DNA of 64,000 nucleotides. Origin: Spirochaetota bacterium (GTDB lineage: Bacteria; Spirochaetota; UBA4802; UBA5550). Shown here in pieces: positions 18,903 through 35,349 of this stretch; positions within the stretch are counted from its first letter, which is position 1, and each line of letters starts with the position of its first letter. The position numbers and the translations under genes are program-made. The notes beneath the pieces are model-generated. The model was given only the letters and a program-made list of their open reading frames with translations. It had not been told where the DNA came from and did no database searches. The stretch is taken from positions 2,400,001 through 2,464,000 of the forward strand of contig CAXXHB010000003.1 of the NCBI GenBank assembly GCA_963664815.2. Reading direction: 5' to 3'.

Positions 18903-18939
18903 AATGAAAGAACGTATTCAATCGTAAACAGCTATTGTG

Positions 18940-19548
18940 TTAAAAACATCCGGTTTCATTGAGCAGTGTTATTCTGTAACTGCTTATACCGGCAAAGATT
19001 ATATTAATACAACCATAATCCTGGGATATATTAAAGAGATTTTCAACAGGCAGCCCCATAGTATGACAGATTATCAGTCGATTAACCCCTGCATGGCCCG
19101 CAATTACTATATTTCCCTGTGATTCACGAACAATCTCCTCAAATGCCGGTATTACTCTCTCTCCGCAGTCATGAAAGCTCTCTCCGCCGGGGGGACGGAA
19201 CTTTACAATATCTCTTCCCCGTTGTTTGTATTCATCAGGATATCTTTTAATTACTTCACTAAAGCTTAATCCATCCCATTCTCCCAGTGATATTTCCCTT
19301 AACTCCGGCTTCACAACCGGTGATATTCCATGATAATCAGATATTATTTCTGCCGTTGCAAATGAGCGGGTAAGATCACTGCAGAATACAGCACTTACCT
19401 TGATCCCGCTGAGTATTCTCCCCAGACGCTTCCCCTGCGCTCTTCCCTCTTCATCAAGCATCAGGTCTGTCTGACCTATAAAATATTTCTCTGTTTCATC
19501 GGTACTGATTTTTCCATGCCTGACAAGATAAATGTTATTGAATTCCAT
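18940..19548 (-). CDS. histidine phosphatase family protein (CobC/GpmB-like)
   Basis: YLVRHG, SDL-x-R, LREI-x-LG-x-WDG, PPGGES, IAGHAG. Confidence 0.9.
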   Translation of the reverse strand: MEFNNIYLVRHGKISTDETEKYFIGQTDLMLDEEGRAQGKRLGRILSGIKVSAVFCSDLTRSFATAEIISDYHGISPVVKPELREISLGEWDGLSFSEVIKRYPDEYKQRGRDIVKFRPPGGESFHDCGERVIPAFEEIVRESQGNIVIAGHAGVNRLIICHTMGLPVENLFNISQDYGCINIIFAGISSYRITLLNETGCF

Positions 19549-19656
19549 TTTCTTTTATTACCTTTCAATTCTGTTTTACAGCTTAACAATTAATAATAAT
19601 TCCTTAACAATTTTCAATAATAATCCCTGATCTTTTTTATTATAGAAAATGCTCTG

Positions 19657-19687
19657 TTCTCACCGCCGCCAATGCCGGCGGTGAGAA
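19657..19687. terminator. stem-loop after the CoA ligase gene
   Basis: 12-bp stem TTCTCACCGCCG/CGGCGGTGAGAA, 7-nt loop; no clear U-tract. Confidence 0.55.
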
Positions 19688-19721
19688 TTAAACGTTTATT
19701 TTAAACTGAAATATTAAGGAA

Positions 19722-21056
19722 TTAATACTGGTGAAAAGATATTTTCCTTTTTCCCGTTCCGGGAATATAATCAATACAACAAATCTCAGATACAACCTTA
19801 ATTTCAAGAATTCCGTTCTTCATTGATTCATAAACTCCCTGTATCATGGAAAGTCCATTGTATACTTCCTGTTCATTAACAGGTTGATTTATTTTAATAA
19901 CTTTAATTTCAAGCACTGTAACTCCATCATGTTTGAAACATGATGCTTTATAATCGACAATACCGTCAATCTTCAGCAGACTTTCATCCAGCTCTGATAT
20001 TCCCAGCATATACCCGCCATGTAAAACAATCATTGAATTTATTCTGTACCGTATATAATCCATTCTGCGGAGTCCGGTACCGCATGGACAGTCACCGGGG
20101 ATAAAACGCGACATATCCCCTGTACGATAACGGATCAGCGGCATTCCATTCCTGGTAAGAGTGGTAAAGACTACTTCTCCATACTCCCCGTCAGGAAGAA
20201 TTTTACCGGAATCGGGATCAACTATTTCAAAATATAAATCAGCTTCACGCAGATGATAACCGCTATGACTGCAGCAGTCAATAGCACCGCCAAGTCCCAT
20301 CTCTGTCATGCCGTAGTGATTGAATACCTCACAACCGAAGATTCTCTCAAGTTCACTTACAATACCGGCAGATACGTAATCTGTGCTCAGCAGAATGCCC
20401 CTGACATGAATTTCAGTCTCCCTGTTTAACTCATAAAATCTTGCCAGTGCCAGAAGCTGAACAGGAATCCCGACAATTACGTTGACATTAAACTCTGATA
20501 TAATATTAAGTGCCCCGGCTATATCCCTTACAACACCATACTTCACCGGTATTGCTCCGAATCTGATTACTGCTTCCGCAAGAAGGTCTCCGACACTGCC
20601 GGGCCTCTCACACGGGAGAAGAATCATAACCCTGTCTCCCGGCAATGTAAGCGTGGACATACCCTGTATAAAAAAATCTATTGTCAGTTCCTGATCTTCA
20701 GTTGTAAAGTAAACCCGCTTCGGACTTCCGGTAGTGCCTGAACTGTCAAGAGTAACAACACGATTAATCGCATCCTGTGATACGCAAAGCATCTGAAGCG
20801 CATTATTTCGTATATCCGTTTCCGAAGTAAACGGGAAAGAGGCAAAATCATCAAAAGAAAAAATATTAAGCTCTGCGAAATCTTTCAGATGCCTCCTGTA
20901 AAAAATACTCCGCTCACAGGCAAAACCAACCGTCTCCCTTATCCTCTCCATCTGGTACATAGCGAGATCTTTCGGTAAAGCATTACCGGAACATGGATTA
21001 ATTCTGTTTCTTATCCAGAAGTCCAGCGGAGTTATTTTCCCTGTTGTTTTAATCAT
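19722..21056 (-). CDS. PaaK-like AMP-dependent CoA ligase (DVU_1553 family-like)
   Basis: SSGTTGSPK P-loop, HYGMTE, GEVVFTTL, PLIRYRTGD; start set at the ATG at 21056, overlapping the radical SAM stop. Confidence 0.88.
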   Translation of the reverse strand: MIKTTGKITPLDFWIRNRINPCSGNALPKDLAMYQMERIRETVGFACERSIFYRRHLKDFAELNIFSFDDFASFPFTSETDIRNNALQMLCVSQDAINRVVTLDSSGTTGSPKRVYFTTEDQELTIDFFIQGMSTLTLPGDRVMILLPCERPGSVGDLLAEAVIRFGAIPVKYGVVRDIAGALNIISEFNVNVIVGIPVQLLALARFYELNRETEIHVRGILLSTDYVSAGIVSELERIFGCEVFNHYGMTEMGLGGAIDCCSHSGYHLREADLYFEIVDPDSGKILPDGEYGEVVFTTLTRNGMPLIRYRTGDMSRFIPGDCPCGTGLRRMDYIRYRINSMIVLHGGYMLGISELDESLLKIDGIVDYKASCFKHDGVTVLEIKVIKINQPVNEQEVYNGLSMIQGVYESMKNGILEIKVVSEICCIDYIPGTGKRKISFHQY

Positions 21057-22449
21057 TCCCGGATCGATGTCCCCTATAGAGGCTTTTACCGTCTCTTGAT
21101 GTAAGATTATACGCACAGAACGGGATAAGTTTTCCGTCACGGCTTACAACGTGAATAATGCACTCTTTCAAACGATTAATTTCCATTGTCCAGGCATCCT
21201 GAAAAGCCATTCCCGATATACATATTGTATGGGTCTTTACTCTTTCAAGGAATATATCGAGACTTTGAGTATTGATTCCCGGATCATCCGTCCTGCTTAT
21301 TTTTTTTAAAGATCCGTGACCGTTTTTATTATCACAGCATACCGGAGAAGCCCACTGTTTCGCTACAAATAATCTTGCCTTTTTCGAACCTTCAGCGGTA
21401 ACAGCCGGGTTTGAACAACATCCTGTTAAATTCTCCTGGTTCCATGGTTTCAGTTCACCATCCTGCATCTGAATAAAATTACCATGGAAGGAGCAATATG
21501 GGTTTTCACCACCTGGAGGTATAAAGTTTGCAGATTTCATTGCTCCGCCTGTCTGTATTTCAATATCACGGATTATTTCAGGTATTGTAATTCTTTTCCC
21601 GTCCATCACCGGATATCTGCCGAAATAGCTGACAGGCTGAAAATGCACCCCTCTTACATGAGGGAGGTTTTCTATGGCAAACTTTATAATTTCACCTATA
21701 TGATCTGTATTAATTCCGGGAATGAGTGTTGGCACCAGAACTACTCCAAGTCCCGCTTTTGCACAGTTTTCAACCGTTTTAAACTTCAGACTCATCAGGT
21801 CTGCACCACGAAGATACCTGTGAATACTGTCGTTCATTCCGTCAAACTGAAGAAAAACGCAGTTAAGCCCCGCATCACGAAGCTTCTCTGCATATCCCGG
21901 TTCATTTGCAAGTCTTATACCGTTTGTATTTAACTGTATAAATGTAAATCCCATATCAAATCCAAGTCTTATTATATCCGGGAGATCATCACGCATGGTA
22001 GGTTCACCGCCAGACAACTGAATGTTAAAAGGTCCGCCGCTCTCCATCAGCATACGATACCATTCAGCAATCTCTTCAATCGTCGGATCATCAGTTTCCG
22101 GTGCACCCGAAGAGGCGAAGCATACAGGACACTTCAGATTGCACCTGCCTGTTATTTCAATGAGAACGCAGCATGTCTGCTGCCGATGTTCAGCGCATAG
22201 TCCGCAGTCGTAGGGACAGCCCCGTGATGTTTCTGCGGCACACAGAGAAGGTTTTGACGGGATCTTTTCCCTGTTCCACCCTTCATAATCAGGTTTACCA
22301 TCCCAGATCTTCACACTGAACCTGCCATGATCCGGACAGTTTTTTTCAAGAAATATTATTTCTCCATCACTGATTTTACATGACGGTATAAGCTTCAGGC
22401 ATTCAGGACATACACTTTCTGAATCACTCCCGGCATTTTTAAAGCGCAT
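21049..22449 (-). CDS. trsS: multi-cluster radical SAM enzyme, MJ0619/Tes-like (TrsS family-like)
   Basis: CPEC...CPDHG, CPYDCGLCAEH, CNLKCPVC (CxxxCxxC), SGGEPT, LQFDG, RGVHFQPVSYFGR, C-terminal IPFCAYN; symbol from recalled family name. Confidence 0.85.
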   Translation of the reverse strand: MRFKNAGSDSESVCPECLKLIPSCKISDGEIIFLEKNCPDHGRFSVKIWDGKPDYEGWNREKIPSKPSLCAAETSRGCPYDCGLCAEHRQQTCCVLIEITGRCNLKCPVCFASSGAPETDDPTIEEIAEWYRMLMESGGPFNIQLSGGEPTMRDDLPDIIRLGFDMGFTFIQLNTNGIRLANEPGYAEKLRDAGLNCVFLQFDGMNDSIHRYLRGADLMSLKFKTVENCAKAGLGVVLVPTLIPGINTDHIGEIIKFAIENLPHVRGVHFQPVSYFGRYPVMDGKRITIPEIIRDIEIQTGGAMKSANFIPPGGENPYCSFHGNFIQMQDGELKPWNQENLTGCCSNPAVTAEGSKKARLFVAKQWASPVCCDNKNGHGSLKKISRTDDPGINTQSLDIFLERVKTHTICISGMAFQDAWTMEINRLKECIIHVVSRDGKLIPFCAYNLTSRDGKSLYRGHRSGND

Positions 22450-22452
22450 AAA

Positions 22453-22761
22453 TCACTCCACTGCCGCATTATTACCGACTATTTCGGTTAAAACAGATTC
22501 AAATCTTTTTTTACTCTCATCAGCACTTTCCGCCGGGAACATCGCTTTGAAAGCAACATCCCGGAGAACACCGATTATTTTTGTTCCATCCTGATAAGTT
22601 ATACTGAAAGAAGGTTTGGGGAAATTTTTGTGAATTATAATATCTGCGTTTTTTTCAAATCTGTTTATAAATTCTTCTGTAAATTTAAAATTAAACCGGT
22701 ACTGGAAAACAGCGGATTTACTTATGCAATTGTCGACTTTTTTAATCTCATAAAGGCTCAT
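22453..22761 (-). CDS. hypothetical 102-aa protein coupled to the desulfurase gene
   Basis: ATGA overlap with the upstream gene, AAGGAG RBS, single N-terminal Cys. Confidence 0.75.
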   Translation of the reverse strand: MSLYEIKKVDNCISKSAVFQYRFNFKFTEEFINRFEKNADIIIHKNFPKPSFSITYQDGTKIIGVLRDVAFKAMFPAESADESKKRFESVLTEIVGNNAAVE

Positions 22762-23882
22762 TCAAGAATACTCCTTACCGCAGAGATTGCATAGTCAATT
22801 TCGTCGTCTGTAGTAAATCTTGATATGCTGAACCTTATGTTTCCGGATGGCCCGGTATCAAGAAACCTGTGAATCAGGGGTGCGCAATGCAGTCCGGTTC
22901 GGCATACAATATCAAAACTTTTAAAAAGAATCTCTCCAGCCTCTTCAGATTCCAGGCCGGGAATATTAAACGATACCACCGGCGTACGCGGCGCGGAGAC
23001 TTTAACCGTAATGGCTCCTGCCTCTATTAATCCATCTGACAGATGCTCAATTTTCCTGTTCAGCACATCAGGTTCAACCGGATTATCCTTCTGCCATTTT
23101 AAAGCAGCAGCCAGTCCGGCAAATGAAGAATCATTGGGAGTTCCAGCCTCAAACCTGACAGGCATTTCAGCCGGCATTTCATCCATATCACTGTGAATTC
23201 CTGTCCCGCCTACCCAGACAGGATTCAGCTCAATATCTTCAGATATATACAGACCGCCGGTGCCGGCAGGACCCAGCAGGTATTTATGACCGGTAAACGC
23301 CACAAGATCAACACCCCATAATTCAGGAGTAACATCGGTAATTCCCATAGTCTGCGAGGCATCGAGAAGAACTACTGCTCCATGTTTCCTCGCAATTCCG
23401 GCAAGCTCTGACACATTGTTGATACAGCCTGTAACATTTGACGCATGAGCAAGCACTACCATCTGTGGTGATAATTTTATGACGGCCCTTTCAAATTCAT
23501 CTGTTATTACTCTCCCTGATATATCAACGGGGATTATCTCGGTTTTTACATTTGAATTCATGGCAAGATAATGAAGAGGCCTCAGTACCGAATTATGTTC
23601 TGCTGCTGATGTAACAACGGATGAATTTCTGCTCCACCTGAAACCATGCAGTGCAATATTAAGCGCATGAGTTGCATTCGCGCAATTGACAATTCGCGAA
23701 GCGTCGGAAATCTTCATATACCCGGCAAGCAGTGTTCGTGAGTCCGGTTTGTTATCACTGTAATCAAAACCTGACCTTGCCGCATGAAACGGGATTCCAC
23801 GGATTGCGTCAGCTACTGCTTCTGCCGTTCCGGGAGCCTTGGGCCATGATGTAGCCGCATTGTTGAAATAATATACCTTCAT
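22758..23882 (-). CDS. cysteine desulfurase-like class V PLP enzyme
   Basis: NAATSWPK, EHNSV, HASNVTG, DASQ, FTGHK (PLP Lys), EAGTPN, RTGLHCAP (catalytic Cys). Confidence 0.9.
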   Translation of the reverse strand: MKVYYFNNAATSWPKAPGTAEAVADAIRGIPFHAARSGFDYSDNKPDSRTLLAGYMKISDASRIVNCANATHALNIALHGFRWSRNSSVVTSAAEHNSVLRPLHYLAMNSNVKTEIIPVDISGRVITDEFERAVIKLSPQMVVLAHASNVTGCINNVSELAGIARKHGAVVLLDASQTMGITDVTPELWGVDLVAFTGHKYLLGPAGTGGLYISEDIELNPVWVGGTGIHSDMDEMPAEMPVRFEAGTPNDSSFAGLAAALKWQKDNPVEPDVLNRKIEHLSDGLIEAGAITVKVSAPRTPVVSFNIPGLESEEAGEILFKSFDIVCRTGLHCAPLIHRFLDTGPSGNIRFSISRFTTDDEIDYAISAVRSILE

Positions 23883-25024
23883 ATCAATACCACTTCAGCT
23901 TTCAGAAAAGATTCAAGATCACTCACTCCGGTAATTTTTTCAATTCTCTCTTTTATTATATGCGCGTTTTTTTCCCGTTTTTCAATATTAGATATAATCC
24001 CGGGATTATCTGAAGATTTTCCTGCAGACTTCCGGAACCTCTCATCAAGAGAAATAAAAACAGTTTCTTTAACAAACTTATCAGCAAGATATATAACTGA
24101 CATTTCATCAACATCCCCGCTGTCAGGATTAATTTCAATATCCATATGTCCCGCTATTACTTTTGCCACATCAGGGTATCCATGCTTGTATAAAATTGAC
24201 GCCCCCTCAGATGCATGACCAGGCTTATCCCTTGCTATATCATGCAGCATGGAGCCCGCCATGATTAAATAAATATCAAGATCAACAGAACCTCTGTCTT
24301 TCAGCAGCTTTGCGATCCTGCATGATATTTCACATACAGCTTTTCCATGTTCATTTACTTTATCCGGAGTTTTATATATTGATAAAAGCGCGGCACATTC
24401 CTCCGCTGAAGGAGCATTACTGTGACACAGATATCTCTCTGCATTACGAAAGTCTTCAGGTGTATCCATATCCATAACCACTGACTGATCAGCCAGTTCA
24501 ACATTCACGGAATCATCTTCAAATCTTGCAAGAACCGAACGGAGATTTTCTGATTTTTCAGACGAAAGAATTTCTTTGATATACGCAGATGATATAAAGG
24601 GGGGATGACCTCTTTCTCCTGAAAAGCATGGATAAATAATCCCTTTCCCTGAATTTCTGAATTCTTCCAGAATAACTTTCACTGTCCCCGGTTTAACCAT
24701 AGGCATATCGCCGGGGAGTATGAATATTCCAGAAGTATTATCTGAAATACTTTTCAACCCGGAGAGCACAGATGAGAACATCCCGTCCTGATAGTTTTCA
24801 TTCAATATAAATTGAATCCCTTTCCCATCCAGCAGTGATATTATTTCTCCAGCCCTGTAACCTGCAACTATTCTGATCTCAGATATACCGGCACTCCTGA
24901 AACAGTCCGCTGCACTTTCAATTACAGTTTTCCCGTTGAGCTTCATCAACGGCTTGAATTCACCCATACGGGAAGAATAACCTGCAGCAAGTATTACCGC
25001 TACGATTTTGTCTTCTCTGCACAT
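23879..25024 (-). CDS. MocA-like nucleotidyltransferase fused to an HD domain (DVU_1551 family-like)
   Basis: LAAGYSSRMG..K, GMFSS, GDMP, GHP, DMDTPED; C-terminal H...LHDIAR...H...H...LADK. Confidence 0.88.
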   Translation of the reverse strand: MCREDKIVAVILAAGYSSRMGEFKPLMKLNGKTVIESAADCFRSAGISEIRIVAGYRAGEIISLLDGKGIQFILNENYQDGMFSSVLSGLKSISDNTSGIFILPGDMPMVKPGTVKVILEEFRNSGKGIIYPCFSGERGHPPFISSAYIKEILSSEKSENLRSVLARFEDDSVNVELADQSVVMDMDTPEDFRNAERYLCHSNAPSAEECAALLSIYKTPDKVNEHGKAVCEISCRIAKLLKDRGSVDLDIYLIMAGSMLHDIARDKPGHASEGASILYKHGYPDVAKVIAGHMDIEINPDSGDVDEMSVIYLADKFVKETVFISLDERFRKSAGKSSDNPGIISNIEKREKNAHIIKERIEKITGVSDLESFLKAEVVLI

Positions 25025-26070
25025 TTTTCACGTTCTGCTCTTACCATGATAAGTTCTGCAACTATACTTACAGCAATCTCTTCAGGACTCTCAGCTTTTA
25101 TATCAAGGCCTATCGGAGAGTGTACTCTGGCAAAATCCTCATCAACATATCCGAACTCTTCTGAAAGCTTTTTATATGTTATTTCACGTTTTTTCCTGCT
25201 GCCTATCATACCAATATACGTTACATGCTTTCTTATTACCTGCTGAAGGACAGTTTTATCGAAAAGATGCCCTCTTGTCACAATAACAAGGTAACTGTCC
25301 TGGTCAGTAATAATGTCAGGCAATGGATTCTCAAACGATTCCAGAAGAACTATTTCCGATGTGGGGAATCTCAGTCTGTTCGCATACTCAGGCCGGTCAT
25401 CTATTACAACTGTTTTGAAACCTACCATCTCGGCAACAGGTGCAATTTTCTGTGATACATGTCCCGCCCCGAATATATAAACCGTACTTGTTTTTACTAC
25501 CGGCTCAACAAGGATTCTCCAGTCAGAAAGAACTTCGGAATGAATTGTTATCCTCGCAGGACCCTCTATGATCTTTGTCAGAAATGCCCTGTCACTCTCA
25601 AATTTTCCCGTCAATGTATGATCCTGCTTAACCAGACACTGTTGCTTTTCACCACTGTTTTTTACACCTGTACCGACTCCGGTAATAAGCCAGGCTTTTT
25701 CTCTTTTATTCCTTACTTCAACAATACTTTTATAAATCTCAAGGTTTAATGGATCATCTGAATCTATATAGTCTACAAGAAATTCACCGGCACCGCCGCA
25801 TATCATATTCATATCAGAAGCATCAGCACCTGTAAGATTGAAAACTCTTGTAACGGGGGTTCTGGTTTTATATACATCCATAGCCATGCTCATCGCTTCA
25901 GCCTCCAGTTTCCCGCCGCCGATTGTTCCACAGATAGATCCATCCCCACGTACTGTCATTTTTGCACCGGCATCACGTGGAGCCGATCCCGACAGGCTGA
26001 ATATTGTCACAACGACTATACTCTTCTTTTCAGATAAAAACTTTACAATATCCTCATATACATTATTCAT
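25000..26070 (-). CDS. xdhC: XdhC/CoxF Moco sulfuration and insertion chaperone
   Basis: GSAPR, GTIGGG-x-LE, ICGG, FGAGHV, YIGMIGS, PIGLDI...PEEIAVSI. Confidence 0.92.
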   Translation of the reverse strand: MNNVYEDIVKFLSEKKSIVVVTIFSLSGSAPRDAGAKMTVRGDGSICGTIGGGKLEAEAMSMAMDVYKTRTPVTRVFNLTGADASDMNMICGGAGEFLVDYIDSDDPLNLEIYKSIVEVRNKREKAWLITGVGTGVKNSGEKQQCLVKQDHTLTGKFESDRAFLTKIIEGPARITIHSEVLSDWRILVEPVVKTSTVYIFGAGHVSQKIAPVAEMVGFKTVVIDDRPEYANRLRFPTSEIVLLESFENPLPDIITDQDSYLVIVTRGHLFDKTVLQQVIRKHVTYIGMIGSRKKREITYKKLSEEFGYVDEDFARVHSPIGLDIKAESPEEIAVSIVAELIMVRAEREKCAEKTKS

Positions 26071-26522
26071 TACTTCTCCTCAGTTTTCCCGGATAAATCA
26101 TATTCATTTTTTTTTAATATTTCTTTCACTTTTTCAAATGTCTTAAGAACAATCTGCGGACACCTTTCATTCATGTTCTGAGGATTGTCTTCGAGTATAT
26201 CCCTGCAGTTTATCCCGCCGAACTTTAAGCCGAATTCATCTTCAAACCATTGTACAAGCTCTGAAATCATTTCATTATGCCGGCTGTCATCGGTTTCTTC
26301 AGGAGAACCCTTCCCCGCATAAAGTGATATCAGGCATGCACCCCCGGAGAGAGCTCCGCAGTTTTTGCCGCTGAATCCCAATCCGCCGGCAAGGCCGTTC
26401 ATTGCACGTATAAGGTCAGGATTGCTTTTACCGTTAGCCTCCAGTCCCATCATAAGAAGAATCTGGCTGCATAAAAATCCCTGCTGTGCAAGTTCAATAA
26501 TTTTAAACAGTTCTTCATTCAT
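26070..26522 (-). CDS. C-GCAxxG-C-C family redox protein (DVU_1555 family-like)
   Basis: G-x2-CSQ, CGALSGGAC, NCRDIL, C-terminal CPQIV. Confidence 0.85.
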   Translation of the reverse strand: MNEELFKIIELAQQGFLCSQILLMMGLEANGKSNPDLIRAMNGLAGGLGFSGKNCGALSGGACLISLYAGKGSPEETDDSRHNEMISELVQWFEDEFGLKFGGINCRDILEDNPQNMNERCPQIVLKTFEKVKEILKKNEYDLSGKTEEK

Positions 26523-26633: not shown

Positions 26634-26713
26634 ATGTGAGTGCTTCGGCCCCGTTCAGCCACCGTTTATAACGGTCTGTGAGCCTGCCGAACTGCTCAAT
26701 CGCTATCGCTTCT
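26634..26713. repeat. dispersed REP-like element, copy A
   Basis: 56/65 identity with 49029-49093; internal TTCGGC...GCCGAA and ACCGTT/AACGGT palindromes. Confidence 0.75.
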
Positions 26714-27449
26714 CCGCTATTAGAGAAAAATATCCCGGCTTCAATGCCGACGCAGCATTCATAAAAGCCTTCATATTGTTTTCACCAGATAACCCGCATT
26801 TAAACAATCCGCAGACAGGTACATCATTCAGGATAAGTCCTGCTATGAACTCTCTCCATAGCTGTGAATAATCTTTCCACTCCAGAATTTTCAATTCTGA
26901 ATCTTCAATATTTTTTATAATCTCACTATATGTTAAAGCGCCGGAGAGTACACCGGGCGGATTTCCTTCTGAAGTTCCTGCTTCAGTTCCATTACGTATA
27001 TAGATATCAGACATTGCAAGCCTCCCTCCATGGCCAAGAACACGCCCTATCTCTTTCAATACACGATTTATATTTCCGGTTGCCGACAGGCTGCATTCTG
27101 CAATTACACCGTCAAATGATTCATTCTTAAAGGGAAGAAATCCGGCATCCCCCTGTACCAGTTTCAGAAATGGAAATTTACTGAGTCCATTTATTAAAAG
27201 TGATCCTGAAATATCAATACCTGCAGCTTTAAACAGATATTTCCTCTCGAGAAGCTCAATACTTATCCCCTGTCCGCATCCTGTGTCAAGAATCCTCGCC
27301 CCATTTTTAAAACCAGCAGATTCAATCAGACGTTCTGTAAGAAGTAATCCACCGGGCCTTACACCTTCAGGAAAAAGTGAGAATAAGCTGTTATCATAAG
27401 GATTTAACAGCTCTTTTTCAACAGGTTTTAAAGATAAAACAGGATTCAT
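26703..27449 (-). CDS. class I SAM methyltransferase (DVU_1556 family-like)
   Basis: RPGGL, LDTGCGQG, GID, LPF...FD, AECSLS; start set at the ATG at 27449 (ATGA overlap). Confidence 0.85.
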   Translation of the reverse strand: MNPVLSLKPVEKELLNPYDNSLFSLFPEGVRPGGLLLTERLIESAGFKNGARILDTGCGQGISIELLERKYLFKAAGIDISGSLLINGLSKFPFLKLVQGDAGFLPFKNESFDGVIAECSLSATGNINRVLKEIGRVLGHGGRLAMSDIYIRNGTEAGTSEGNPPGVLSGALTYSEIIKNIEDSELKILEWKDYSQLWREFIAGLILNDVPVCGLFKCGLSGENNMKAFMNAASALKPGYFSLIAEKR

Positions 27450-27646
27450 TTGTCCTCTAATGCTTTTTCCGCCATATCCATCTTCCCCAGAGCGAGATCT
27501 TCCGGAATATATACAAGCCCGCATTTCGGACATTTCAACAGGTCAACAGGAAAGCTGCTGCTCAGATATGTAAGTGTAACCTTCCCTGGCGTCAAATCTA
27601 TACCGCATTTACCACATTCCAGGCCTGACTGAATACTTTTACCCAT
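27446..27646 (-). CDS. small CxxC/CxxCG redox or zinc-ribbon protein (DVU_1557 family-like)
   Basis: CGKC...CPKCG, ends ALEDK; translationally coupled to neighbours. Confidence 0.82.
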   Translation of the reverse strand: MGKSIQSGLECGKCGIDLTPGKVTLTYLSSSFPVDLLKCPKCGLVYIPEDLALGKMDMAEKALEDK

Positions 27647-27656
27647 TCTCCATACT

Positions 27657-29984
27657 CTACCCTTTTATTTCAAGACGATGGCTATACGCATTATGAACAG
27701 TAAAACCTCCGGAGCCTGCCGAATACTCAACCCAGTATGTAACCTTCACAGGCTGAAAATAAGCAATATAATGACCGTTCTCTTTGTTCTTCAGTTTATT
27801 CCCGGTTTTTTCCGCATATGAAACTACGGACAGGATATCCGAATCGAGTATCATCCGATCTTCAATTATCCGCCGTGTTTCATCAGGTATAATCAGTTTA
27901 ACTTCATTTATTTCATCCTCAACATGCTCATTCCATAATTCACGTAATACCATTTTTTTCAGTTTTGATCTGTTTTCCTGGCGTTTGGAATAACCCGGGC
28001 TCTCTTTCATTGCAGATTCATCACCGCAATTGTCAAAAATCAGGTCCAGAATATGAAATGACCTTTTACCATGATTCGCAAAATTATCGCGGCACATGGC
28101 ACAGTATGAAACATAATCATAATCACTTTCCTGTATCCTTTTATTTATTACCATGTCCGCCACCTCCCTGTTTGCATAAATCATCAATCCGCCATAGCTG
28201 CAGCAGACAGTACGATCGCAATTGCCCGGCAGTTCCTCAACATGGTGTCCTTTCCTGGTAATAATATTGCGTATACTTCTGTGTATTTCATTTTCAAATC
28301 TCGTAGTACAACTGTCATGTACTGCCAGTTTCATTTTCTCTGCTGCCGTTACTTCAGAACCCGGAAGTCCGATACGGTCAAGAACAGTCCATACTGTCTC
28401 CACCCTGATATCCCTGATGCCATTTTTAAGCATATAATAGCATGAGGGACATGCGGTAATTACAGCAGGTTTTCCGGAATTATTCCACTCATTTTCAAAC
28501 GACATCAATGTATCGGAAAACAGTTTTTCATCACCGGCCCATCCGGCCGGCGCTCCGCAGCAGCCGAGCATTAATCCAACACCCCCCTCTATTTTCCCGC
28601 AGAGGTACTGATATAGTTTTTTCACATAAACAGGGTATGAAGCGGAAAGCTGACACCCAGGGAAAAAAACTGTTTTACCTGAATTAGTACCGGGCTGATA
28701 TCTGTTAAGCTTAAATTCTTCACTGTTGCTGAAATGCATATCCCGCAGTGCAAAATCATGTGTTGACGGCGGCATTTTATTTTTGGCAACCATCATCTTT
28801 CTCGCTTCTGCACAGATTTCCCCCATATTAAGCCTGTTCGGGCAGACTTCCGCGCAGAGACCGCATAAACTGCAGGAATTTATCATTTTATTGGAGCGGT
28901 GTATACCCATGACAATAGACAGGTTGTTATATATTTCACGCACGTACCTTTTTGGATAGGACTTATAATAAGCAAGATATTCACACACCTTGACACACTC
29001 AAGGCATTCACACAAAAGACATCGTCCGGATTCATCAATTCCCTCATCGATTGTATAGCCTGCAGTCTTATCTGACATCTTTGTAACCGGCCTGCTCACC
29101 ACACCCTCAATATTTGTAAAAAGCTCCGACTCGTAAGAGCCTTCCCTGCTCCTGTTTGCAGTCAGTGATGCATTCTGCAGAAAACGGTCAATGGAATTGG
29201 CCGCAATTTTACCATCAGATATAGAATTTACAGCTGACCATTTTTCTTTTTCATTACGCAGGCTTCCCCCTGCAAAAACATTAGGAACAACAGTTGAGAG
29301 AGTCTGAGAATCTATAATAACGCTTTCTTTTATACCAGTACCAAAGATATAATCCAAACCTTTGCTGTCTTTATTTCCTGTCCCGACATAGACGGCATCA
29401 TATTCTTTGTACAGATCTTCAAAAGATATATCAGAATTATTGCCGACTTTTTTATTATAATTTATCGATACAGGCAGTGTATCAAAAACAGATAAATCAT
29501 TTTCTATTAAGTGTTCCGGAAGAATCTCTTCCGGAAAATCTCTGGTTCTACCCCCGATCTTTCCGGAGGCCTCATATACTGTAACAGAAAAACCTTTCTG
29601 AACGAGTTCCATTGCAACCGTAAGCCCGCTGAGGCCGGCTCCTACAACAGCAACTTTTTTTTCTTTTAATGGCGGAGTGATAATCTTTGGAGCAGGTTTT
29701 GTATTATGTTCAACGCAGATTTTTTCAAGTGCCCTGATTGATATAGATTCATCAATTTTTTTCCTGATGCAGTAATCACGGCATGGTTGACTGCATATCC
29801 GGCTTATAATTCCGGGGAAAGGAACCGCCTTTCGTAATATGGAAAATCCATCCGGGAATTCGTTTCTCTGAACAGAGGTAATCATTTTTCTTACATCAAC
29901 ATGTAAAGGACACCCTGAAGTGCAGCCGGGCGGATTTTCCTGTATACACCTGTTTTCCTGTTCGTGCAGCTGATCCTGGTCCAT
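27657..29984 (-). CDS. GltD-like Fe-S/flavin module + 4Fe-4S dicluster + CCG-domain oxidoreductase
   Basis: C-x4-PPGC-x3-CP, VGAGLSG Rossmann, CLLCECLECVKVC, CSLCGLCAEVCP, FFPGC, CCG, HDSC, CCSYGG, YCAMC. Confidence 0.88.
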   Translation of the reverse strand: MDQDQLHEQENRCIQENPPGCTSGCPLHVDVRKMITSVQRNEFPDGFSILRKAVPFPGIISRICSQPCRDYCIRKKIDESISIRALEKICVEHNTKPAPKIITPPLKEKKVAVVGAGLSGLTVAMELVQKGFSVTVYEASGKIGGRTRDFPEEILPEHLIENDLSVFDTLPVSINYNKKVGNNSDISFEDLYKEYDAVYVGTGNKDSKGLDYIFGTGIKESVIIDSQTLSTVVPNVFAGGSLRNEKEKWSAVNSISDGKIAANSIDRFLQNASLTANRSREGSYESELFTNIEGVVSRPVTKMSDKTAGYTIDEGIDESGRCLLCECLECVKVCEYLAYYKSYPKRYVREIYNNLSIVMGIHRSNKMINSCSLCGLCAEVCPNRLNMGEICAEARKMMVAKNKMPPSTHDFALRDMHFSNSEEFKLNRYQPGTNSGKTVFFPGCQLSASYPVYVKKLYQYLCGKIEGGVGLMLGCCGAPAGWAGDEKLFSDTLMSFENEWNNSGKPAVITACPSCYYMLKNGIRDIRVETVWTVLDRIGLPGSEVTAAEKMKLAVHDSCTTRFENEIHRSIRNIITRKGHHVEELPGNCDRTVCCSYGGLMIYANREVADMVINKRIQESDYDYVSYCAMCRDNFANHGKRSFHILDLIFDNCGDESAMKESPGYSKRQENRSKLKKMVLRELWNEHVEDEINEVKLIIPDETRRIIEDRMILDSDILSVVSYAEKTGNKLKNKENGHYIAYFQPVKVTYWVEYSAGSGGFTVHNAYSHRLEIKG

Positions 29985-30326
29985 TCTATTCCCTCTATTG
30001 TTAGATTTACCCGGGAATTCTCATTAAAAAATATTTTATAATCATGAATCATGTCATCTGTCAATCGCATATCTGAAATAAAGATTAATATTATTATACC
30101 ATCTTTATGCTGAATCTCAATTTAATATAAATATTTCTCAATAGCCTGCGTAATATTCTGAAATCTGTCATTGCCATAACCGATATCGATCTGACGTTCT
30201 TTTCAGGAAAAGGTTCACTATATTTATATATTTCCCATACCATATAACAGATACTTCAATCTCTGACAGTTGTTTGCAATAACATACTGCATAATATTTC
30301 AAATGCAGAATACTTCAAATAGTCCC

Positions 30327-30363
30327 GAAACGGGCTGTTGGTTAAATACCTCCAGCCCGTTTC
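30327..30363. terminator. stem-loop downstream of mop
   Basis: 11-bp stem GAAACGGGCTG/CAGCCCGTTTC, 30 nt after the mop stop. Confidence 0.6.
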
Positions 30364-30392
30364 AGGTTATTCAGCTTAATATTTTCATGCTT

Positions 30393-33122
30393 TTACTTCT
30401 TTTTTTTACTCAACCCCGCTTTAATCTTTTCAGGAAGAGCAGGTACTGCATAAATACGTACTCCGCATGCATTATATATCGCATTTAGAATTGCAGGATG
30501 CGGAGCTGTCAACGGAGCTTCACCAACTCCTGCTGCACCATGTGGCCCCAGAGGACGTGGTGATATGTTGTATAATATCTCCATGTCATCCGGTATATCC
30601 TGAATGTACGGCAAACCGCAGGCTGCGAGTGTTGTATGTTTTTTCAGATCTTCAAAGTCCTCCGTAAGGGCAAGACCTATCCCCTGAGCAAGGCCTCCGT
30701 AAATCTGTCCGTCTGTTACAAGCTGGTTTGTAATTGTTCCGATATCCGCTATAGTTGTAAATTTGACGACTTTAGCCTTGCCGGTTTTCATATCAACTTC
30801 AACTTCAGGCATAAATAACTCATACATATATACAGGGAAAGGATTCCCCTGTCCGGTAACGCTGTCGCATGCGGAACAATCCGATGCTGTCCAGGTCCCG
30901 TCATAATGCAACGGAATTTTTTCAGCCACCATTTCATCGTATGTGCGGTATTTGCCGTTCTTTTTCTTCATGGCATTCAGCAGCATCTCACACGAGACCC
31001 TGATTGAATTTCCGGTGAAGGTATTATTGCGGCTTCCGCCCGAAGGACCGCTGTTTGGCGTAAGGGCAGTATCATTCATTAACAGTTTTATCTGTTCAGG
31101 TTTAAATCCTGCCGGACGCAGAGTTTCATGAGCGTGTGCAAATGCGCCCATATCCGCCCCCTGACCATGATCTTCCCAAGAACTTCCGACCAGAACTCCG
31201 TCCTTTGTAAGTTCAACCCAGGCCTGTGAACTGTCAGGGCCGTCAAGGCCGCAGCCATATATACCGAGTGACAGACCCACTCCCCGTTTTATATCGTCAG
31301 TGGAATCATCTTCACAGCGTTTCTTTGCCTTCTTCCATAGCGGCCGCAGTTTATTGAACATCTCCTCTAGACAGAAAACTTCCGGAGTCTGTCCCGTTGG
31401 AGTTGTTGCTCCCGGTCTGTAGATATTCTTGAACCTCAGTTCAAGCGGATCCATTCCGAGTTTTTCAGCAAGTTCATCCATTGCAATTTCCGACGCAAGG
31501 AATGCCTGAGGCGAACCGTATGCCCTGAATGCCGAACCCCATGCATGGTTTGTACACACCGTACGGCCCCTTCCGCGGATATTAGGAATATCATATCCCG
31601 CTCCGAGAAACTGCGCCTGTCTGACAGTGAGCAGATCCCCGAATTCCGAATACGGCCCATGGTCAATAAACCAGTCACCTTCCATCGCAAGGAGTTTTCC
31701 TGTTTTATCCGCTGCCATTTTGCAGTTTACAAATCCAGGCGATCGTTTCCCGGTGTAGGTTATCTGCTGAAACATATCAAATACAAGCGAAACGGGTTTC
31801 CCTGTTGCCATACATGCAACTCCAAGCAGAGCTTCTATAGTAGGGCTGAACTTATACCCGAAAGTCCCTCCCGTAGGATTCTGTATAAGGCGTAGTTTCT
31901 CAGGTTCAATTCCTAATCCGGGACATATCATTGCATGATGAAGGTGTATTCCTATACTCTTTGAATGAATTGTCAAACGCCCCTCATCATCAAAATAAGC
32001 GTTTCCGCAATCAGGCTCAAGTACAAGGTGAGGTTGACGGCTGCAATAGGTATTTACCTCTGCAGTTACAACATCAGACTTACTCATTATAGGTTTGGTT
32101 TCACTCCCCTTAACAACTCCCTGTTCATAATAAATGTTCGGAGTACCGGGATGAATTTCAATAGCATCATCTGCCATTGCCGCCGGAGCACTCATATATG
32201 CCGGAAGAACTTCCAGATCAACCTTCACCTTTTTAACCGCTTCCTGTGCATGTTCAACAGTATCTGCACATACTATCGCAATGGCGTCACCAAACTGGAA
32301 TACTTTTTTGTCACACAGTATCGGACGATCCCAGCCATCACCCTTGTTTGTAGGAAAAGTAATAAGGCCAGTTATACGGTTTTTACCCTTAACATCCTTA
32401 TGTGTTACTACTTTATAAACTCCCGGCATCTTTTCAGCTTCGGATGTATCAATATTTTTAATATTTGCGTGTGAAACCTCCGCCTGTACAAGAGCAAGCC
32501 GCAGAGTATCCGGAGGCATCTGCAGCGCAATATCTGCCCCGAAGTCCCATGTCCCGGTTACCTTCTGCAACGCCGAAGGACGGTGGTATGTTGTTCCGTA
32601 GATTTTATTACCTGTGGGTTTAAACAGCAGATCCTCCTTCTTCATTTTGCCGCGCATAACCTTGCTTGCCGCCATAACAGCGTCGATAATCGGCTTATAG
32701 CCGGTACATCGGCAGGCATTCCTGTTCTTCTGAAACCAATCACGTGCTTCCTCACGTTTCGGATTCGGGTTTTTATCAAGAAGAACCTTTGCAGAAAGAA
32801 TAAATCCGGGACTGCAGAAACCGCACTGAGCACAGCCATAGGCCATCCATGCTACCTGGAGTGGATGCAGATTATCCGGAGTGCCAAGACCCTCAATCGT
32901 TGTGATTTTAGCATTATCCGCAACTTTTTTCATTTTCACAATGCATGAACGGACTAATTCACCATTCAGGATAATCGAACATGTACCGCACTGACCCTGG
33001 TTGCAGCTTACTTTACATCCCGTCAGCATCATCTGTTCCCTTAAAACACCGGCGAGACTTGCATCAGGATCAACAATTAATGTTCTGTCCAGCCCATTAA
33101 TATTTAACACTTTCTTCAGCAT
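30393..33122 (-). CDS. mop: molybdopterin-dependent aldehyde oxidoreductase (Desulfovibrio Mop type)
   Basis: 909 aa; 2Fe-2S motifs C-x4-CGTC and QCGFC...CRCTGY, GGTFGYK, AFRAYGSPQ, SGGSR, GVGEAP (catalytic Glu); no FAD domain. Confidence 0.96.
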   Translation of the reverse strand: MLKKVLNINGLDRTLIVDPDASLAGVLREQMMLTGCKVSCNQGQCGTCSIILNGELVRSCIVKMKKVADNAKITTIEGLGTPDNLHPLQVAWMAYGCAQCGFCSPGFILSAKVLLDKNPNPKREEARDWFQKNRNACRCTGYKPIIDAVMAASKVMRGKMKKEDLLFKPTGNKIYGTTYHRPSALQKVTGTWDFGADIALQMPPDTLRLALVQAEVSHANIKNIDTSEAEKMPGVYKVVTHKDVKGKNRITGLITFPTNKGDGWDRPILCDKKVFQFGDAIAIVCADTVEHAQEAVKKVKVDLEVLPAYMSAPAAMADDAIEIHPGTPNIYYEQGVVKGSETKPIMSKSDVVTAEVNTYCSRQPHLVLEPDCGNAYFDDEGRLTIHSKSIGIHLHHAMICPGLGIEPEKLRLIQNPTGGTFGYKFSPTIEALLGVACMATGKPVSLVFDMFQQITYTGKRSPGFVNCKMAADKTGKLLAMEGDWFIDHGPYSEFGDLLTVRQAQFLGAGYDIPNIRGRGRTVCTNHAWGSAFRAYGSPQAFLASEIAMDELAEKLGMDPLELRFKNIYRPGATTPTGQTPEVFCLEEMFNKLRPLWKKAKKRCEDDSTDDIKRGVGLSLGIYGCGLDGPDSSQAWVELTKDGVLVGSSWEDHGQGADMGAFAHAHETLRPAGFKPEQIKLLMNDTALTPNSGPSGGSRNNTFTGNSIRVSCEMLLNAMKKKNGKYRTYDEMVAEKIPLHYDGTWTASDCSACDSVTGQGNPFPVYMYELFMPEVEVDMKTGKAKVVKFTTIADIGTITNQLVTDGQIYGGLAQGIGLALTEDFEDLKKHTTLAACGLPYIQDIPDDMEILYNISPRPLGPHGAAGVGEAPLTAPHPAILNAIYNACGVRIYAVPALPEKIKAGLSKKKK

Positions 33123-33250
33123 CTCTTTAACACCTCCATTAAGATTTTATAATATTAAACAATAATAATTCCATGAGTCCGGCATTATCGTTATAATCAG
33201 CAACTGCTTTTAAAAATAAAATTCGCTTTCATCAGAGAGGCCGTTCACAT

Positions 33251-34276
33251 TTAACTGCTTTTACCGAATGAGCAGTTTGGAAAATGACATACAGAACATC
33301 CGGTACACATTCCTCCATGCGCCAGACGGAGTATATCCCGTCTCTTGACCTCCTCACCCGCAAGAATGCGCGGAACGACAAGATCAAATATTGTGTTTTT
33401 GCTGTACATTACACAACCGGGGAGTCCAAGAACCGGAATATCATCAATGTATGCCAGCATAAACATTGAACCGGGAAGGACAGGAGCTCCGTAAATAACC
33501 ACACGTCCCCCGGCAGACCTTATACCTGACGGGGTAAGATCATCAGGGTCAACTGACATTCCCCCTGTTGCCGTAATCAGATCCGCACCGTCGTCAATCA
33601 GTGTTTTAATTGCATTTGTTATCATTTCCAGATCATCTGTAACATAAATCTGGCGAATAACCTCACTTCCAAGATCACTGAATTTCTTTTTTATCACCGG
33701 ACCAAACTGATCTTTAATCCTTCCATGATATACCTCACTGCCGGTTGTAACGACACCTACTCTGTGCGGTTTCAATGGTTTTATTTCTATTAGGGGCTGG
33801 TACTCTTTACACAACTGCTCTGCTTTTTCAATTTTCGAGGACTCAATAACAAGCGGCACGACCCTGCAGCCTGCAACTTTACTTCCTGCAGGTACAATCT
33901 GGTTTGTATGAATTGTAGCAAAGACAACCTGGTCAATGTCATTCACCAGATCAAGAAGGTTAACGTTAATTTTAAGCAGCCCGGTATATTCCGCGAGAAG
34001 ATCAACCTTACCCTCTTCCGGGCCATTCATAATTACTCCTCTGCCTTTAGCGGCTTTCGCCAGCCTCAGAGCAGCATCATCTTCATGAAGCATCTGTTTA
34101 TTAATCTCCCATACATACAGGTGCTCCTTCCCGAGATTCAGCAGTTTCGGTATATCATCTTTTGTAACAACATGACCTTTTTTAAATGCACGCCCTTTAA
34201 AACTTCCGGGCGTTATTTCTGTTATGTCATGACATAGAACCATACCTTCGGATTGTTCGATTGATACAATTTTCAT
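33251..34276 (-). CDS. molybdopterin-binding (MoeA/MogA-like) protein with C-terminal Cys cluster
   Basis: HDIT...AFKKGH, TTGSEV, TGGMSVDPDDLTP, YGAPVLPG, GLPGC, C-terminal CTGCSVCHFPNC. Confidence 0.88.
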   Translation of the reverse strand: MKIVSIEQSEGMVLCHDITEITPGSFKGRAFKKGHVVTKDDIPKLLNLGKEHLYVWEINKQMLHEDDAALRLAKAAKGRGVIMNGPEEGKVDLLAEYTGLLKINVNLLDLVNDIDQVVFATIHTNQIVPAGSKVAGCRVVPLVIESSKIEKAEQLCKEYQPLIEIKPLKPHRVGVVTTGSEVYHGRIKDQFGPVIKKKFSDLGSEVIRQIYVTDDLEMITNAIKTLIDDGADLITATGGMSVDPDDLTPSGIRSAGGRVVIYGAPVLPGSMFMLAYIDDIPVLGLPGCVMYSKNTIFDLVVPRILAGEEVKRRDILRLAHGGMCTGCSVCHFPNCSFGKSS

Positions 34277-34497
34277 CCGGATACCACCATATCAAAGCAT
34301 TAATCTTCAATTAATATACCAATTATGACATATATAAGTTTACAATACATTATGATTGAGCTGAAATCTAATCGAAACTTAAATAATTTAGTCATTATTA
34401 AAAAAAAATGAATTTTTTCACTTTTTATTTATGTTATTTTTAACACATACAAAAAATTGTTGTTTTTTTTTTAAGTCACTATTAAACATTTGTAAAT

Positions 34498-35349
34498 ATG
34501 GACAGATTTGATAGAAACATTGAATTATGTGATGGTCTTGAGACTGATTTTATCAAAGTTCTATACTATGAATTTCCGGACTATTACAGAGACAATTACA
34601 GATCCTATGAGTACTACAGAGTATGTACAATACTTGAAGGGAGTAAATTTGTTGAAATCGACAATGCGGAAAGTTTTGTCTACGATACAAGCCAGTTTAT
34701 AGTTCTTCCCCCCGAATCAACAGTTATGATGGAGATAGCAAATCCGACAAAGGCACTTGTACTTGAAATAAGCGACAAACTTATTGAAGAGATAAATAAC
34801 AAAGTTTGCCTGGATCTTGAGATAGACTGTAATCCCCTTAATGATAACGATCAGCATATATTCAGGGCAGATTCGGTACTGATTAAAAATGACATCAGCC
34901 GGATTACATCCATGGCTCTGGGATCATTAAACAACAGGGAATTTCTTATAGACCTGTATGTGCAGGAAATGACGTACAAGCTTCTGAATTCAATGGGAAA
35001 CAACATCATTCTCCATGGAAGATCAGAAAATCCGATTGTAAAAGCAATTGATATTATGAAAGAGAGTATAGAAAAAGATATTGATATATCCGGAATTGCA
35101 AAGTCATTACGTATGTCACCCGCTCTCTTTTCAATGAAGTTTAAAAAAATAACAGGTCTGTCTCCTAATACTTACTATACCAGTATAAAGCTTAACGAAG
35201 CCAGAAAAATGCTTAAACGAAAATCAGTAACAGAAGTTTCACTGGACCTGGGCTATGATAACATATCTCATTTCATCAGGCTTTTTTCAGATAAATTCGG
35301 AGTTACACCCAAACAATACCAGATGCATCTGCAAAGCAGGAGTGAATAA
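34498..35349 (+). CDS. AraC family regulator, divergent from the Mop cluster
   Basis: N-terminal cupin-like domain (CTILEGSK), C-terminal double HTH (FKKITGLSP, SVTEVS-x2-LGY...FIRLF...FGVTP). Confidence 0.92.
   Translation: MDRFDRNIELCDGLETDFIKVLYYEFPDYYRDNYRSYEYYRVCTILEGSKFVEIDNAESFVYDTSQFIVLPPESTVMMEIANPTKALVLEISDKLIEEINNKVCLDLEIDCNPLNDNDQHIFRADSVLIKNDISRITSMALGSLNNREFLIDLYVQEMTYKLLNSMGNNIILHGRSENPIVKAIDIMKESIEKDIDISGIAKSLRMSPALFSMKFKKITGLSPNTYYTSIKLNEARKMLKRKSVTEVSLDLGYDNISHFIRLFSDKFGVTPKQYQMHLQSRSE

Follow-up and report, generated by a model that had tools for sequence, protein, structure and literature searches.

A Spirochaetota copy of the Mop/TrsS aldehyde oxidoreductase neighbourhood and a possibly portable core of accessory genes

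In this study we describe a gene cluster around mop, which encodes a Mop-type molybdenum aldehyde oxidoreductase (Mop), in a 64,000-nucleotide stretch of contig CAXXHB010000003.1 from a Spirochaetota bacterium (the window; all coordinates refer to this whole stretch). By the curated protein family models that it matches, the locus is a complete copy of the neighbourhood already catalogued around Mop and the radical S-adenosylmethionine (SAM) enzyme TrsS, the DVU_1551-1560 type. The operon kind is therefore not new, and the chemistry of its accessory genes is uncharacterised. We propose that the locus is built of three layers: Mop itself, a variable set of genes that would finish its molybdenum cofactor (Moco), and a portable core, G-z-M-c-TrsS-L, with the gene letters explained below. 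Gene identities, synteny, co-occurrence, domain loss and gene fusions were observed, and from them we infer an electron path, a docking step and a chemistry; for this explanation as a whole, the three layers included, we see about even chances. The new leads are the portability of the core, the loss of an NAD(P)H domain from G, fusions between the C-terminal domain (CTD) of G and z, and a C-terminal lysine of z that is invariant in our alignment.

The cluster consists of 13 consecutive open reading frames (ORFs) on the minus strand, from 34276 down to 18940, with a plus-strand AraC gene beside them at 34498-35349; this is the gene content and order that a preliminary description of the window had given. 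The features are:

34498..35349, plus strand: divergent AraC-family regulator (Pfam HTH_18, HTH_AraC, AraC_N)
33251..34276, minus strand: E, MoCF-domain ('MoeA-like') protein of 341 amino acids with a Cys-rich C-terminus (PF00994 MoCF_biosynth, residues 174-304)
30393..33122, minus strand: mop, Mop-type aldehyde oxidoreductase with molybdopterin cytosine dinucleotide (MCD) (NF045668)
27657..29984, minus strand: G, NfnB/GltD-like FeS-flavoprotein with a 4Fe-4S dicluster, an HdrB-type CCG domain and a C-terminal domain of about 85 amino acids (NF045663)
27660..27932, minus strand: the CTD of G, a separable unit with fused and split forms in other loci
27446..27646, minus strand: z, CxxC zinc-ribbon protein of 66 amino acids, DVU_1557/DUF7479, ending in LEDK (NF045645, PF24292)
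26703..27533 (ORF; likely start 27449), minus strand: M, DVU_1556-family class I SAM methyltransferase (NF045667)
26070..26522, minus strand: c, DVU_1555-family C-GCAxxG-C-C protein (NF045669, PF09719)
25000..26070, minus strand: X, XdhC-family aldehyde oxidoreductase maturation factor (NF045664)
23879..25024, minus strand: N, MocA-HD, a MocA-like NTP transferase fused to an HD domain (NF045665; Pfam NTP_transf_3, HD)
22758..23882, minus strand: D, class-V aminotransferase, cysteine desulfurase / selenocysteine-lyase-like (PF00266)
22453..22761, minus strand: p, p102, a 102-amino-acid protein of no known family with homologues at other loci
21049..22449, minus strand: T, TrsS, radical SAM enzyme in its cysteine (Cys) form (NF045646)
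19722..21140 (ORF; likely start 21056), minus strand: L, DVU_1553-family PaaK-like adenylate-forming ligase (NF045666)
18940..19548, minus strand: H, histidine phosphatase, CobC-like (TIGR03162, PF00300)

The identification comes from NCBIfam and Pfam profile scans of 15 window proteins, read against the curated NCBIfam cut-offs. Nine genes exceed the cut-offs of the Mop, DVU_155x-type and TrsS models (scores in bits, with cut-off and model in brackets): Mop reached 1651 (1100, NF045668), G 1010 (530, NF045663), the DVU_1557 protein z 95 (60, NF045645), the DVU_1556 methyltransferase 191 (155, NF045667), the DVU_1555 protein c 181 (103, NF045669), the XdhC_rel_AOR protein 403 (350, NF045664), the DVU_1551 protein MocA-HD 429 (315, NF045665), TrsS 668 (490, NF045646) and the DVU_1553 ligase 465 (300, NF045666). 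The locus thus shares with the NCBIfam DVU_1551-DVU_1560/TrsS neighbourhood (NF045645, NF045646, NF045663-NF045669) all nine models and the same core order. It differs in its Spirochaetota host, in a TrsS of the Cys and not the selenocysteine (Sec) form, in the divergent AraC gene, and in the insertion of XdhC, MocA-HD, desulfurase and p102 between c and TrsS, as is also seen in two Sporomusa loci (L009, L010). The model names point to DVU_1551-1557 of Desulfovibrio vulgaris, DVU_1559 being the Aor of that organism, and the resemblance to DVU1551-1560 that had been suggested was borne out by the search with the matching models.

The remaining proteins gave less clear-cut assignments. The phosphatase lies narrowly above the CobC-type model TIGR03162 (164 against 162.9), and MocA-HD falls short of the MocA model TIGR03310 (146 against 186). 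The desulfurase was tried as a member of TIGR01977 and of SclA NF040779 and rejected as both, since its scores were too low (334 against 377 and 246 against 525); Pfam places it among the class-V aminotransferases. The first gene had been called MoeA-like, a name that we drop: the protein carries a MoCF_biosynth domain only, with no MoeA_N or MoeA_C domain by Pfam, and it scored 30 bits against 440 for NF007960 and 63.6 against 85 for TIGR00177. Canonical MoeA (three copies), MoaC and MoaE are encoded elsewhere in the same genome. For p102 there was no match to any Pfam or NCBIfam family, and none of the 15 scanned proteins matched a model of YqeB or YqeC, the accessory system of selenium-dependent molybdenum hydroxylases.

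A review table from 2026 has an entry 'Radical SAM selenoprotein TrsS, NF045646', which it credits to Haft and Tolstoy 2025 (mSystems). In the literature that we covered on TrsS, on the DVU155x tags and on GCAxxG proteins with aldehyde oxidoreductase, to which Haft and Tolstoy 2025 does not belong, we found no paper on the accessory genes. The earlier remark that these families have names but no assigned pathway is therefore right for the literature covered, but as the neighbourhood had been catalogued it is no discovery. It is also correct that the cluster holds more chemistry than the finishing of Moco requires.

How firmly the genes belong together was judged from other genomes. An alignment search with TrsS of species-representative genomes returned 591 relatives among 596 candidate stretches, and 80 loci were kept; gene content was determined by local tblastn with at least 30% query coverage in the 52 loci with full flanks. 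Most often the genes run E-MOP-G-z-M-c-T-L-X-N-H, and the window shares with the two Sporomusa loci the order MOP-G-z-M-c-X-N-D-p-T-L-H. Colinear order was found again in loci of many phyla. Mop is followed by G in 51/52 loci, G by z in 61/64 and TrsS by the ligase in 67/80, and this arrangement is far beyond chance. Among the full-flank loci the ligase and z are each present in 50/52, the methyltransferase in 46/52, c in 44/52 and Mop in 40/52; then follow XdhC (31/52), MocA-HD (29/52), the phosphatase (25/52), the MoCF protein (17/52), the desulfurase (7/52) and p102 (4/52).

The same association is seen between whole genomes, for which we sampled 251 Desulfobacterota (the phylum of Desulfosarcina) and 301 Bacillota (the phylum of Sporomusa). 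Mop above cut-off occurs in 17 of the Desulfobacterota, all 17 with TrsS above cut-off and 15 with both on a single contig at a distance of about 4 kb. TrsS above cut-off was found in 24 genomes of this phylum, seven of them having no Mop above cut-off; one of the seven (G286) has a Mop split at contig ends. Among the Bacillota, Mop exceeds the cut-off in 26 genomes, and every one of them has a TrsS match at E<=1e-130, 22 of these matches being above cut-off and four at 454-479 bits. Pooled, a TrsS-type gene accompanies Mop above cut-off in 43/43 genomes. Co-occurrence of the accessory genes with mop, which the preliminary description had named as the point on which its idea would stand or fall, is hence what we observe. 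Mop-like paralogues at 740-890 bits break the rule in the Desulfobacterota sample.

The core is not tied to Mop, however. In 12/52 full-flank loci no Mop lies within reach, and the core (z-M-(c)-T-L) was found beside tungsten-type aldehyde:ferredoxin oxidoreductases by Pfam annotation (loci L059, L060, L065, L099, L100; NAD-type aldehyde dehydrogenases occur as well in L065 and L100), beside Flx/Hdr-like sets (L084, L092), beside BcrAD-type ATPases with HGD-D (HgdD-like) proteins (L076, L077, L094), beside a DsrMK-like pair (L097) and beside longer GltD/CCG proteins (L031, L088). In two genomes (G283, G185) Mop is followed by G and z, which are kept together, and TrsS and the ligase lie beside a tungsten aldehyde oxidoreductase on another contig, which makes Mop-G-z the tightest unit and suggests that the TrsS and ligase enzymes can act from a distance. 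XdhC, MocA-HD and phosphatase vary together and independently of the core; phosphatase and MocA-HD are both present in 24 of the 52 loci and both absent from 22, the phosphatase standing alone in one and MocA-HD in five. As a separate observation, the Dehalococcoidia locus L084 has two tandem TrsS paralogues (L084:10004-12784) adjoining the Flx/Hdr-like genes and an MFS transporter. Production of membrane-spanning lipids by a module unrelated to Mop was also considered, and was rejected because of the tight coupling to oxidoreductase operons.

These neighbours bear directly on the idea with which the locus was first described, namely that Mop depends on a decorated pterin or MCD and that the radical SAM enzyme, the ligase, the methyltransferase, the phosphatase and the Cys proteins are the assembly line that builds it. 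The module is present in every Mop-bearing genome sampled and is located between Mop and the Moco genes, and some homologues carry the Joint Genome Institute (JGI) label 'hydroxymethylpterin dimethyltransferase'. The cofactor chemistry of Desulfovibrio gigas Mop is also unusual as reported, with no sulfido ligand needed and a dithiolene-based inactivation. Yet the D. gigas crystal structures show ordinary MCD, going by the paper and the titles of the PDB entries, and the pterin methylation behind such labels was not corroborated for MJ0619, the founding member, which was reassigned as a lipid C-C synthase according to Lloyd et al. 2022; a role of TrsS as a class D radical SAM pterin methylase ('HMPTM') was rejected on this ground. 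Since the core adjoins tungsten enzymes, which have a different pterin cofactor, as well as the pterin-free Flx/Hdr-like, BcrAD/HGD-D and CCG-only partners, it is unlikely to modify the molybdenum cofactor. As for the phosphatase, its companions are XdhC and MocA-HD and not the radical SAM core. We therefore consider the decorated-cofactor explanation decidedly improbable.

Under the three-layer proposal, the variable set (XdhC, MocA-HD, phosphatase and MoCF protein, here joined by the desulfurase and the small Cys protein p102) would finish and insert the MCD cofactor. By their distribution XdhC, MocA-HD, phosphatase and MoCF protein are frequent yet dispensable parts. The XdhC and MocA family domains are those known from the maturation of the xanthine-oxidase family by XdhC, MocA and a cysteine desulfurase, whereas here MocA bears an HD domain and has a histidine phosphatase as companion, and a desulfurase is rare in such clusters. 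This rarity (7/52) fits the absence of a sulfido-ligand requirement in D. gigas Mop. We found nine close homologues of p102, which follows the desulfurase in five of the eight loci that have one (L009, L010, L044, L045, L055). Its invariant residues are N11, C12, Y21, P50, F52 and G64, and the Asn-Cys pair is compatible with a role as sulfur acceptor. An AlphaFold2 model of p102 (predicted local distance difference test score, pLDDT, 86) gave nothing at E<=0.001 in a Foldseek search of the PDB, and its best VIA-align match, a half-domain of TATA-binding protein, has a Z of 8.7, within the range typical of models that have no true match.

Mop itself is well defined. It matches the D. gigas aldehyde oxidoreductase (1SIJ/1VLB) over residues 1-904 with 1346 bits and the D. 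desulfuricans enzyme (1DGJ) with 1306 bits, both full-length, and has the same domain set (Fer2, Fer2_2, Ald_Xan_dh_C and MoCoBD_1/2 by Pfam) with no flavin adenine dinucleotide (FAD) domain. In the two Desulfovibrio systems the enzyme was studied alone and its genomic partners were not. The electron acceptor of D. gigas Mop has so far been 'proposed to be a flavodoxin', in the wording of the source. We suggest that Mop oxidises aldehydes to acids and that G-z-M-c-TrsS-L is its obligate companion, the two [2Fe-2S] clusters of Mop, which has no flavin domain, handing electrons to G.

The domain structure of G is consistent with such a path. By Pfam it has Fer4_20, one Rossmann motif, Fer4_17 and CCG. 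Over its first 210 residues G can be aligned to NfnB, to GltD and to the GltD-like modules found in formate-dehydrogenase-type enzymes, and the two-cluster domain and FAD Rossmann fold are alike in G and the NfnB/GltD small subunit. Residues 18-207 and 221-273 of G align to residues 101-290 and 452-502 of the 9BOV chain, and the gap of about 150 amino acids between them marks an NAD(P)H domain that is missing from G. Three Mop-less GltD-type versions (L031, L077, L088) keep the NAD(P)H stretch with a complete Pyr_redox_2 match. Beyond this loss, G differs from NfnB/GltD by its fusion to the dicluster, an HdrB-type CCG domain and a novel CTD; solved structures match it only in part, and none shows this architecture. 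Electrons would thus seem to enter the Mop form of G from Mop instead of NAD(P)H and to exit via the dicluster and the HdrB-like CCG domain; with the NAD(P)H domain gone and this CCG domain in place, low-potential aldehyde electrons would end at a thiol/disulfide-type site.

The CTD of G might be the docking site for z. It is fused ahead of z in L059, L060, L065 and L092 and forms a separate ORF of 86-91 amino acids before z in L077, L084 and L088. Its AlphaFold2 model (pLDDT 88) has two helices and a four-stranded sheet, for which the fold search gave only weak RelE/YoeB-like topology matches (E 0.05-0.1, template modelling score 0.4-0.56) that we do not take as homology. Near the end of the CTD (G residues 767-770) lies an 'AYSHR' motif in which the His is invariant and the Tyr and Arg are nearly so. 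In the proposed scheme z would connect the oxidoreductase to the Tes-like TrsS, the ligase, the methyltransferase and c, which would either use the electrons or mature z.

The zinc-ribbon protein z has two CxxC pairs and a helix. Residues C11, Y27, C39, C42, E60, L63, E64 and K66 are invariant in an alignment of 47 sequences, and the last residues are LE[D/A/E/S]K in 74 of 75 homologues (LEDK in 69). This strictly terminal conserved lysine points to a docking tail or to a site on which enzymes act. With its profile, the best match in the PDB was a weak one to MasE, the small subunit of 1-methylalkylsuccinate synthase (9O8U_D, E 0.002), which we treat as a lead at most, and the other matches were LIM and zinc fingers; in the protein atlas we found z in DUF7479 clusters only. 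Complex prediction for TrsS and ligase with z as partner gave scores of 0.13 and 0.10, the mark being 0.32, and is no argument for or against binding.

If the terminal lysine is a site of modification, z might be a protein-borne substrate and not an electron carrier: the ligase would acylate or otherwise modify this lysine, and TrsS and the methyltransferase would act too, for example by making a C-S or C-C bond to an unactivated carbon in the manner of LipA or GDGT-MAS, to give a covalent thiol-type redox group for reduction by the CCG domain of G. In Hdr it is the CCG domains that reduce disulfides, and a zinc ribbon with a conserved charged tail is reminiscent of LysW. We noted an analogy with LysW and with the maturation of lipoyl domains by LplA and LipA, in that a small zinc-ribbon protein with a charged tail, an adenylating ligase and a radical SAM enzyme with an auxiliary cluster are encoded alongside each other; here, though, the ligase has the PaaK fold and not that of ATP-grasp enzymes or LplA, and there is no sequence relation. 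A LysW-type carrier in the strict sense was rejected, the terminal residue being Lys and not Glu, with no ATP-grasp gene in the cluster and no LysW among the PDB matches of the z profile. Besides the invariant K66, it speaks for a modified z that z stays with each oxidoreductase while one TrsS-ligase pair can sit elsewhere, as one would expect for a maturase and its target. Against this, the conserved tail could equally be a docking peptide, any modification of z is hypothetical, a few loci (L072, L051, L094) have z without the ligase, and the cluster has no universal protease, thiol-forming or sulfur-donor gene, the desulfurase being the rarity described above. On balance we hold it unlikely that z is such a modified carrier.

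TrsS matches GDGT-MAS (7TOL) at E 1e-87 and shares with GDGT-MAS/Tes (MJ0619) the rubredoxin-type motif CX2CX20CX2H (C14/C17/C38/H41), the N-terminal cluster residues C78/C82/C85 and H88, and the radical SAM motif CX3CX2C (C103/C107/C110), all of them invariant in TrsS. The labile Met that is a ligand of the C-terminal cluster in GDGT-MAS, found within 'SCMHF' of 7TOL, has its aligned counterpart in M414 of TrsS, which is likewise invariant. In contrast to GDGT-MAS/Tes, TrsS is bacterial and lies within an oxidoreductase operon, and its Cys-rich residues 314-401 have no aligned counterpart in 7TOL. TrsS was rejected as a Tes proper because it reached 354 bits against a cut-off of 450 for NF045702. 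GDGT-MAS makes a bond between a substrate carbon and a cluster sulfur, according to Lloyd et al. 2022, and the Met and Cys of that cluster are retained at the aligned positions in TrsS, a further point in favour of a covalently modified z. From these likenesses TrsS probably attacks an unactivated carbon. An in-frame stop aligned to a Cys of TrsS, the mark of a Sec form, was seen in none of the 80 loci; one further TrsS match (G566:C8:34053-35348) contains a single in-frame TGA and may be a selenocysteine form.

The ligase matches the PaaK structures 4R1L and 2Y27 (E 1e-37 to 1e-35) and is closest to phenylacetate-CoA ligases, which brings up the possibility of a catabolic or detoxifying route: Mop, a tungsten aldehyde oxidoreductase or an aldehyde dehydrogenase would make an acid, the ligase its CoA thioester, and TrsS and the methyltransferase would follow. 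Three unrelated aldehyde-oxidising families (the dehydrogenases in L065 and L100) do adjoin the core, as do, in three loci, BcrAD/HGD-D enzymes, which act on CoA thioesters, and a regulator of AraC type is typical of catabolic operons. But the cluster has no conserved gene for a thioesterase, a transporter, a hydratase or beta-oxidation, such a route leaves z, c and the CCG domain without a role, D. gigas Mop accepts a wide range of aldehydes as published, and in L084, L031 and L088 the core has Flx/Hdr-like or CCG-only partners with no aldehyde enzyme nearby. A dedicated pathway of this kind is, in our opinion, unlikely.

One more possibility concerns the protection of the oxidoreductase. D. 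gigas Mop is reported to be isolated partly inactive, with an oxidised dithiolene sulfur, and to be reactivated only by strong reductants, so G, z and c could be a low-potential thiol-based system that keeps Mop and other oxidant-sensitive partners reduced, matured by TrsS, ligase and methyltransferase. CCG and Cys-rich proteins suit the reduction of disulfides or thiones, and other partners of the core (BcrAD-type ATPases, RACo in L098) are themselves reductive activators. As this explanation is purely inferential and leaves the need for a Tes-like radical SAM enzyme and an adenylating ligase unexplained, we find it very unlikely.

Several points also count against the three-layer proposal that we prefer, with its electron path from Mop through G to z. 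Purified D. gigas Mop is active in vitro as described, which means that the module is not needed for turnover with artificial acceptors. The sole CCG stretch of G past the Pfam threshold is PF02754 at residues 439-520 (E 1e-10). The cut-off of NF045668 may reflect this very neighbourhood, which makes the 43/43 partly circular, and related genomes are not independent. Sporomusa silvacetica (G042) has five Mop paralogues above the cut-off and one TrsS, so that one module must serve several Mops or some Mops do without. The loci with z and no ligase count here as well.

As to its origin, the cluster was probably acquired by horizontal transfer. The genome encodes a GyrB with 94% identity to proteins named Spirochaetota bacterium, and TrsS was found in 0/7 genomes of the same genus and 0/17 other genomes of the same family (24 in all) and in 2/16 genomes of the same order; Mop was not found in three same-genus genomes that are 94-97% complete. 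In one of the same-order genomes (G039) an AraC gene (57% identity) is divergent from Mop (87% identity), which is followed by G-z-M-c-X-T-L. Among the 80 loci, most of which stop short of the region upstream of Mop, we saw none with an AraC homologue. In quick, unrooted FastTree trees the window forms a pair with G039, which Sporomusaceae join next (support 100 and 100 for Mop, 100 for G, 99 and 96 for XdhC, 96 for TrsS), which supports Sporomusaceae (Bacillota), and not Desulfobacterota, as the nearest relatives, and the trees give neither donor nor direction. It weighs against this reading that no small clade has support in the trees of the ligase and of MocA-HD and that all trees are unrooted and made by FastTree only. 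Of the earlier suggestion of an acquisition from Desulfobacterota or Firmicutes, the transfer itself and the Bacillota link are thus plausible, but not the link to Desulfobacterota or any named donor. In five same-genus genomes searched with both flanks, DNA identity was 64-74% and the flanks were not adjacent, so that no empty site could be defined. The guanine-plus-cytosine content of the cluster (0.41-0.44) exceeds that of its neighbours (0.36-0.40), but with 0.44-0.47 elsewhere in the window it is not usable as a transfer signal.

Mop has served as a structural model for molybdenum enzymes for decades, while its physiological acceptor and role are, in the sources at hand, still proposals. 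Every sampled Mop above cut-off comes with the same six-gene core, which suggests that Mop has been studied apart from its real partners. At least 591 species-level genomes have a TrsS relative, and the core also plugs into other low-potential enzymes. Once solved, its chemistry would give a function to the DUF7479, C-GCAxxG-C-C, TrsS, DVU_1553 and DVU_1556 families together, and one possible outcome is a bacterial use of Tes-type radical chemistry. If z were indeed a modified carrier, it would amount to a novel protein-bound redox cofactor system common to molybdenum and tungsten aldehyde oxidoreductases and to the Flx/Hdr-like complexes of anaerobes. For the stretch studied here, the gain is a correct annotation and a likely inter-phylum transfer into a spirochaete.

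With regard to the layout, the genes had been described as mostly overlapping. This holds for 8/12 junctions, which overlap or are at most 10 nucleotides apart if the later starts are taken for methyltransferase and ligase (the methyltransferase ATG at 27449 gives a 4-nucleotide overlap with the z stop), but not for the remaining gaps of 128, 408, 180 and 173 nucleotides. The 408 nucleotides separate mop from G, the next gene downstream, and contain the best promoter-like site of the region (30093-30120, minus strand, TTGAGA-16-TATAAT with TG, 11/12), so that the accessory genes may have their own promoter. An Rfam scan of 17500-36500 gave no match at E<=1, and thus no Moco riboswitch or other known RNA in this gap.

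Some observations were made at the edge of the cluster and beyond. About 90 nucleotides right after the last cluster gene (18851-18938) have at least six matches in the same-genus genome G003, mostly at 80-92% identity, and short matches in the same-genus genomes G005 and G006; this stretch may be a dispersed repeat. A CxxC-rich ORF of 60 amino acids (18515-18697, minus strand), for which there was no Pfam or NCBIfam match, lies close by on the downstream side. A second redox cluster is located at 39147-45506 on the minus strand, where genes for a GlcD-like FAD oxidase, a CCG/LdhH-like protein, the alpha and beta subunits of indolepyruvate:ferredoxin oxidoreductase and an FrhB-like protein are followed by an IclR regulator.

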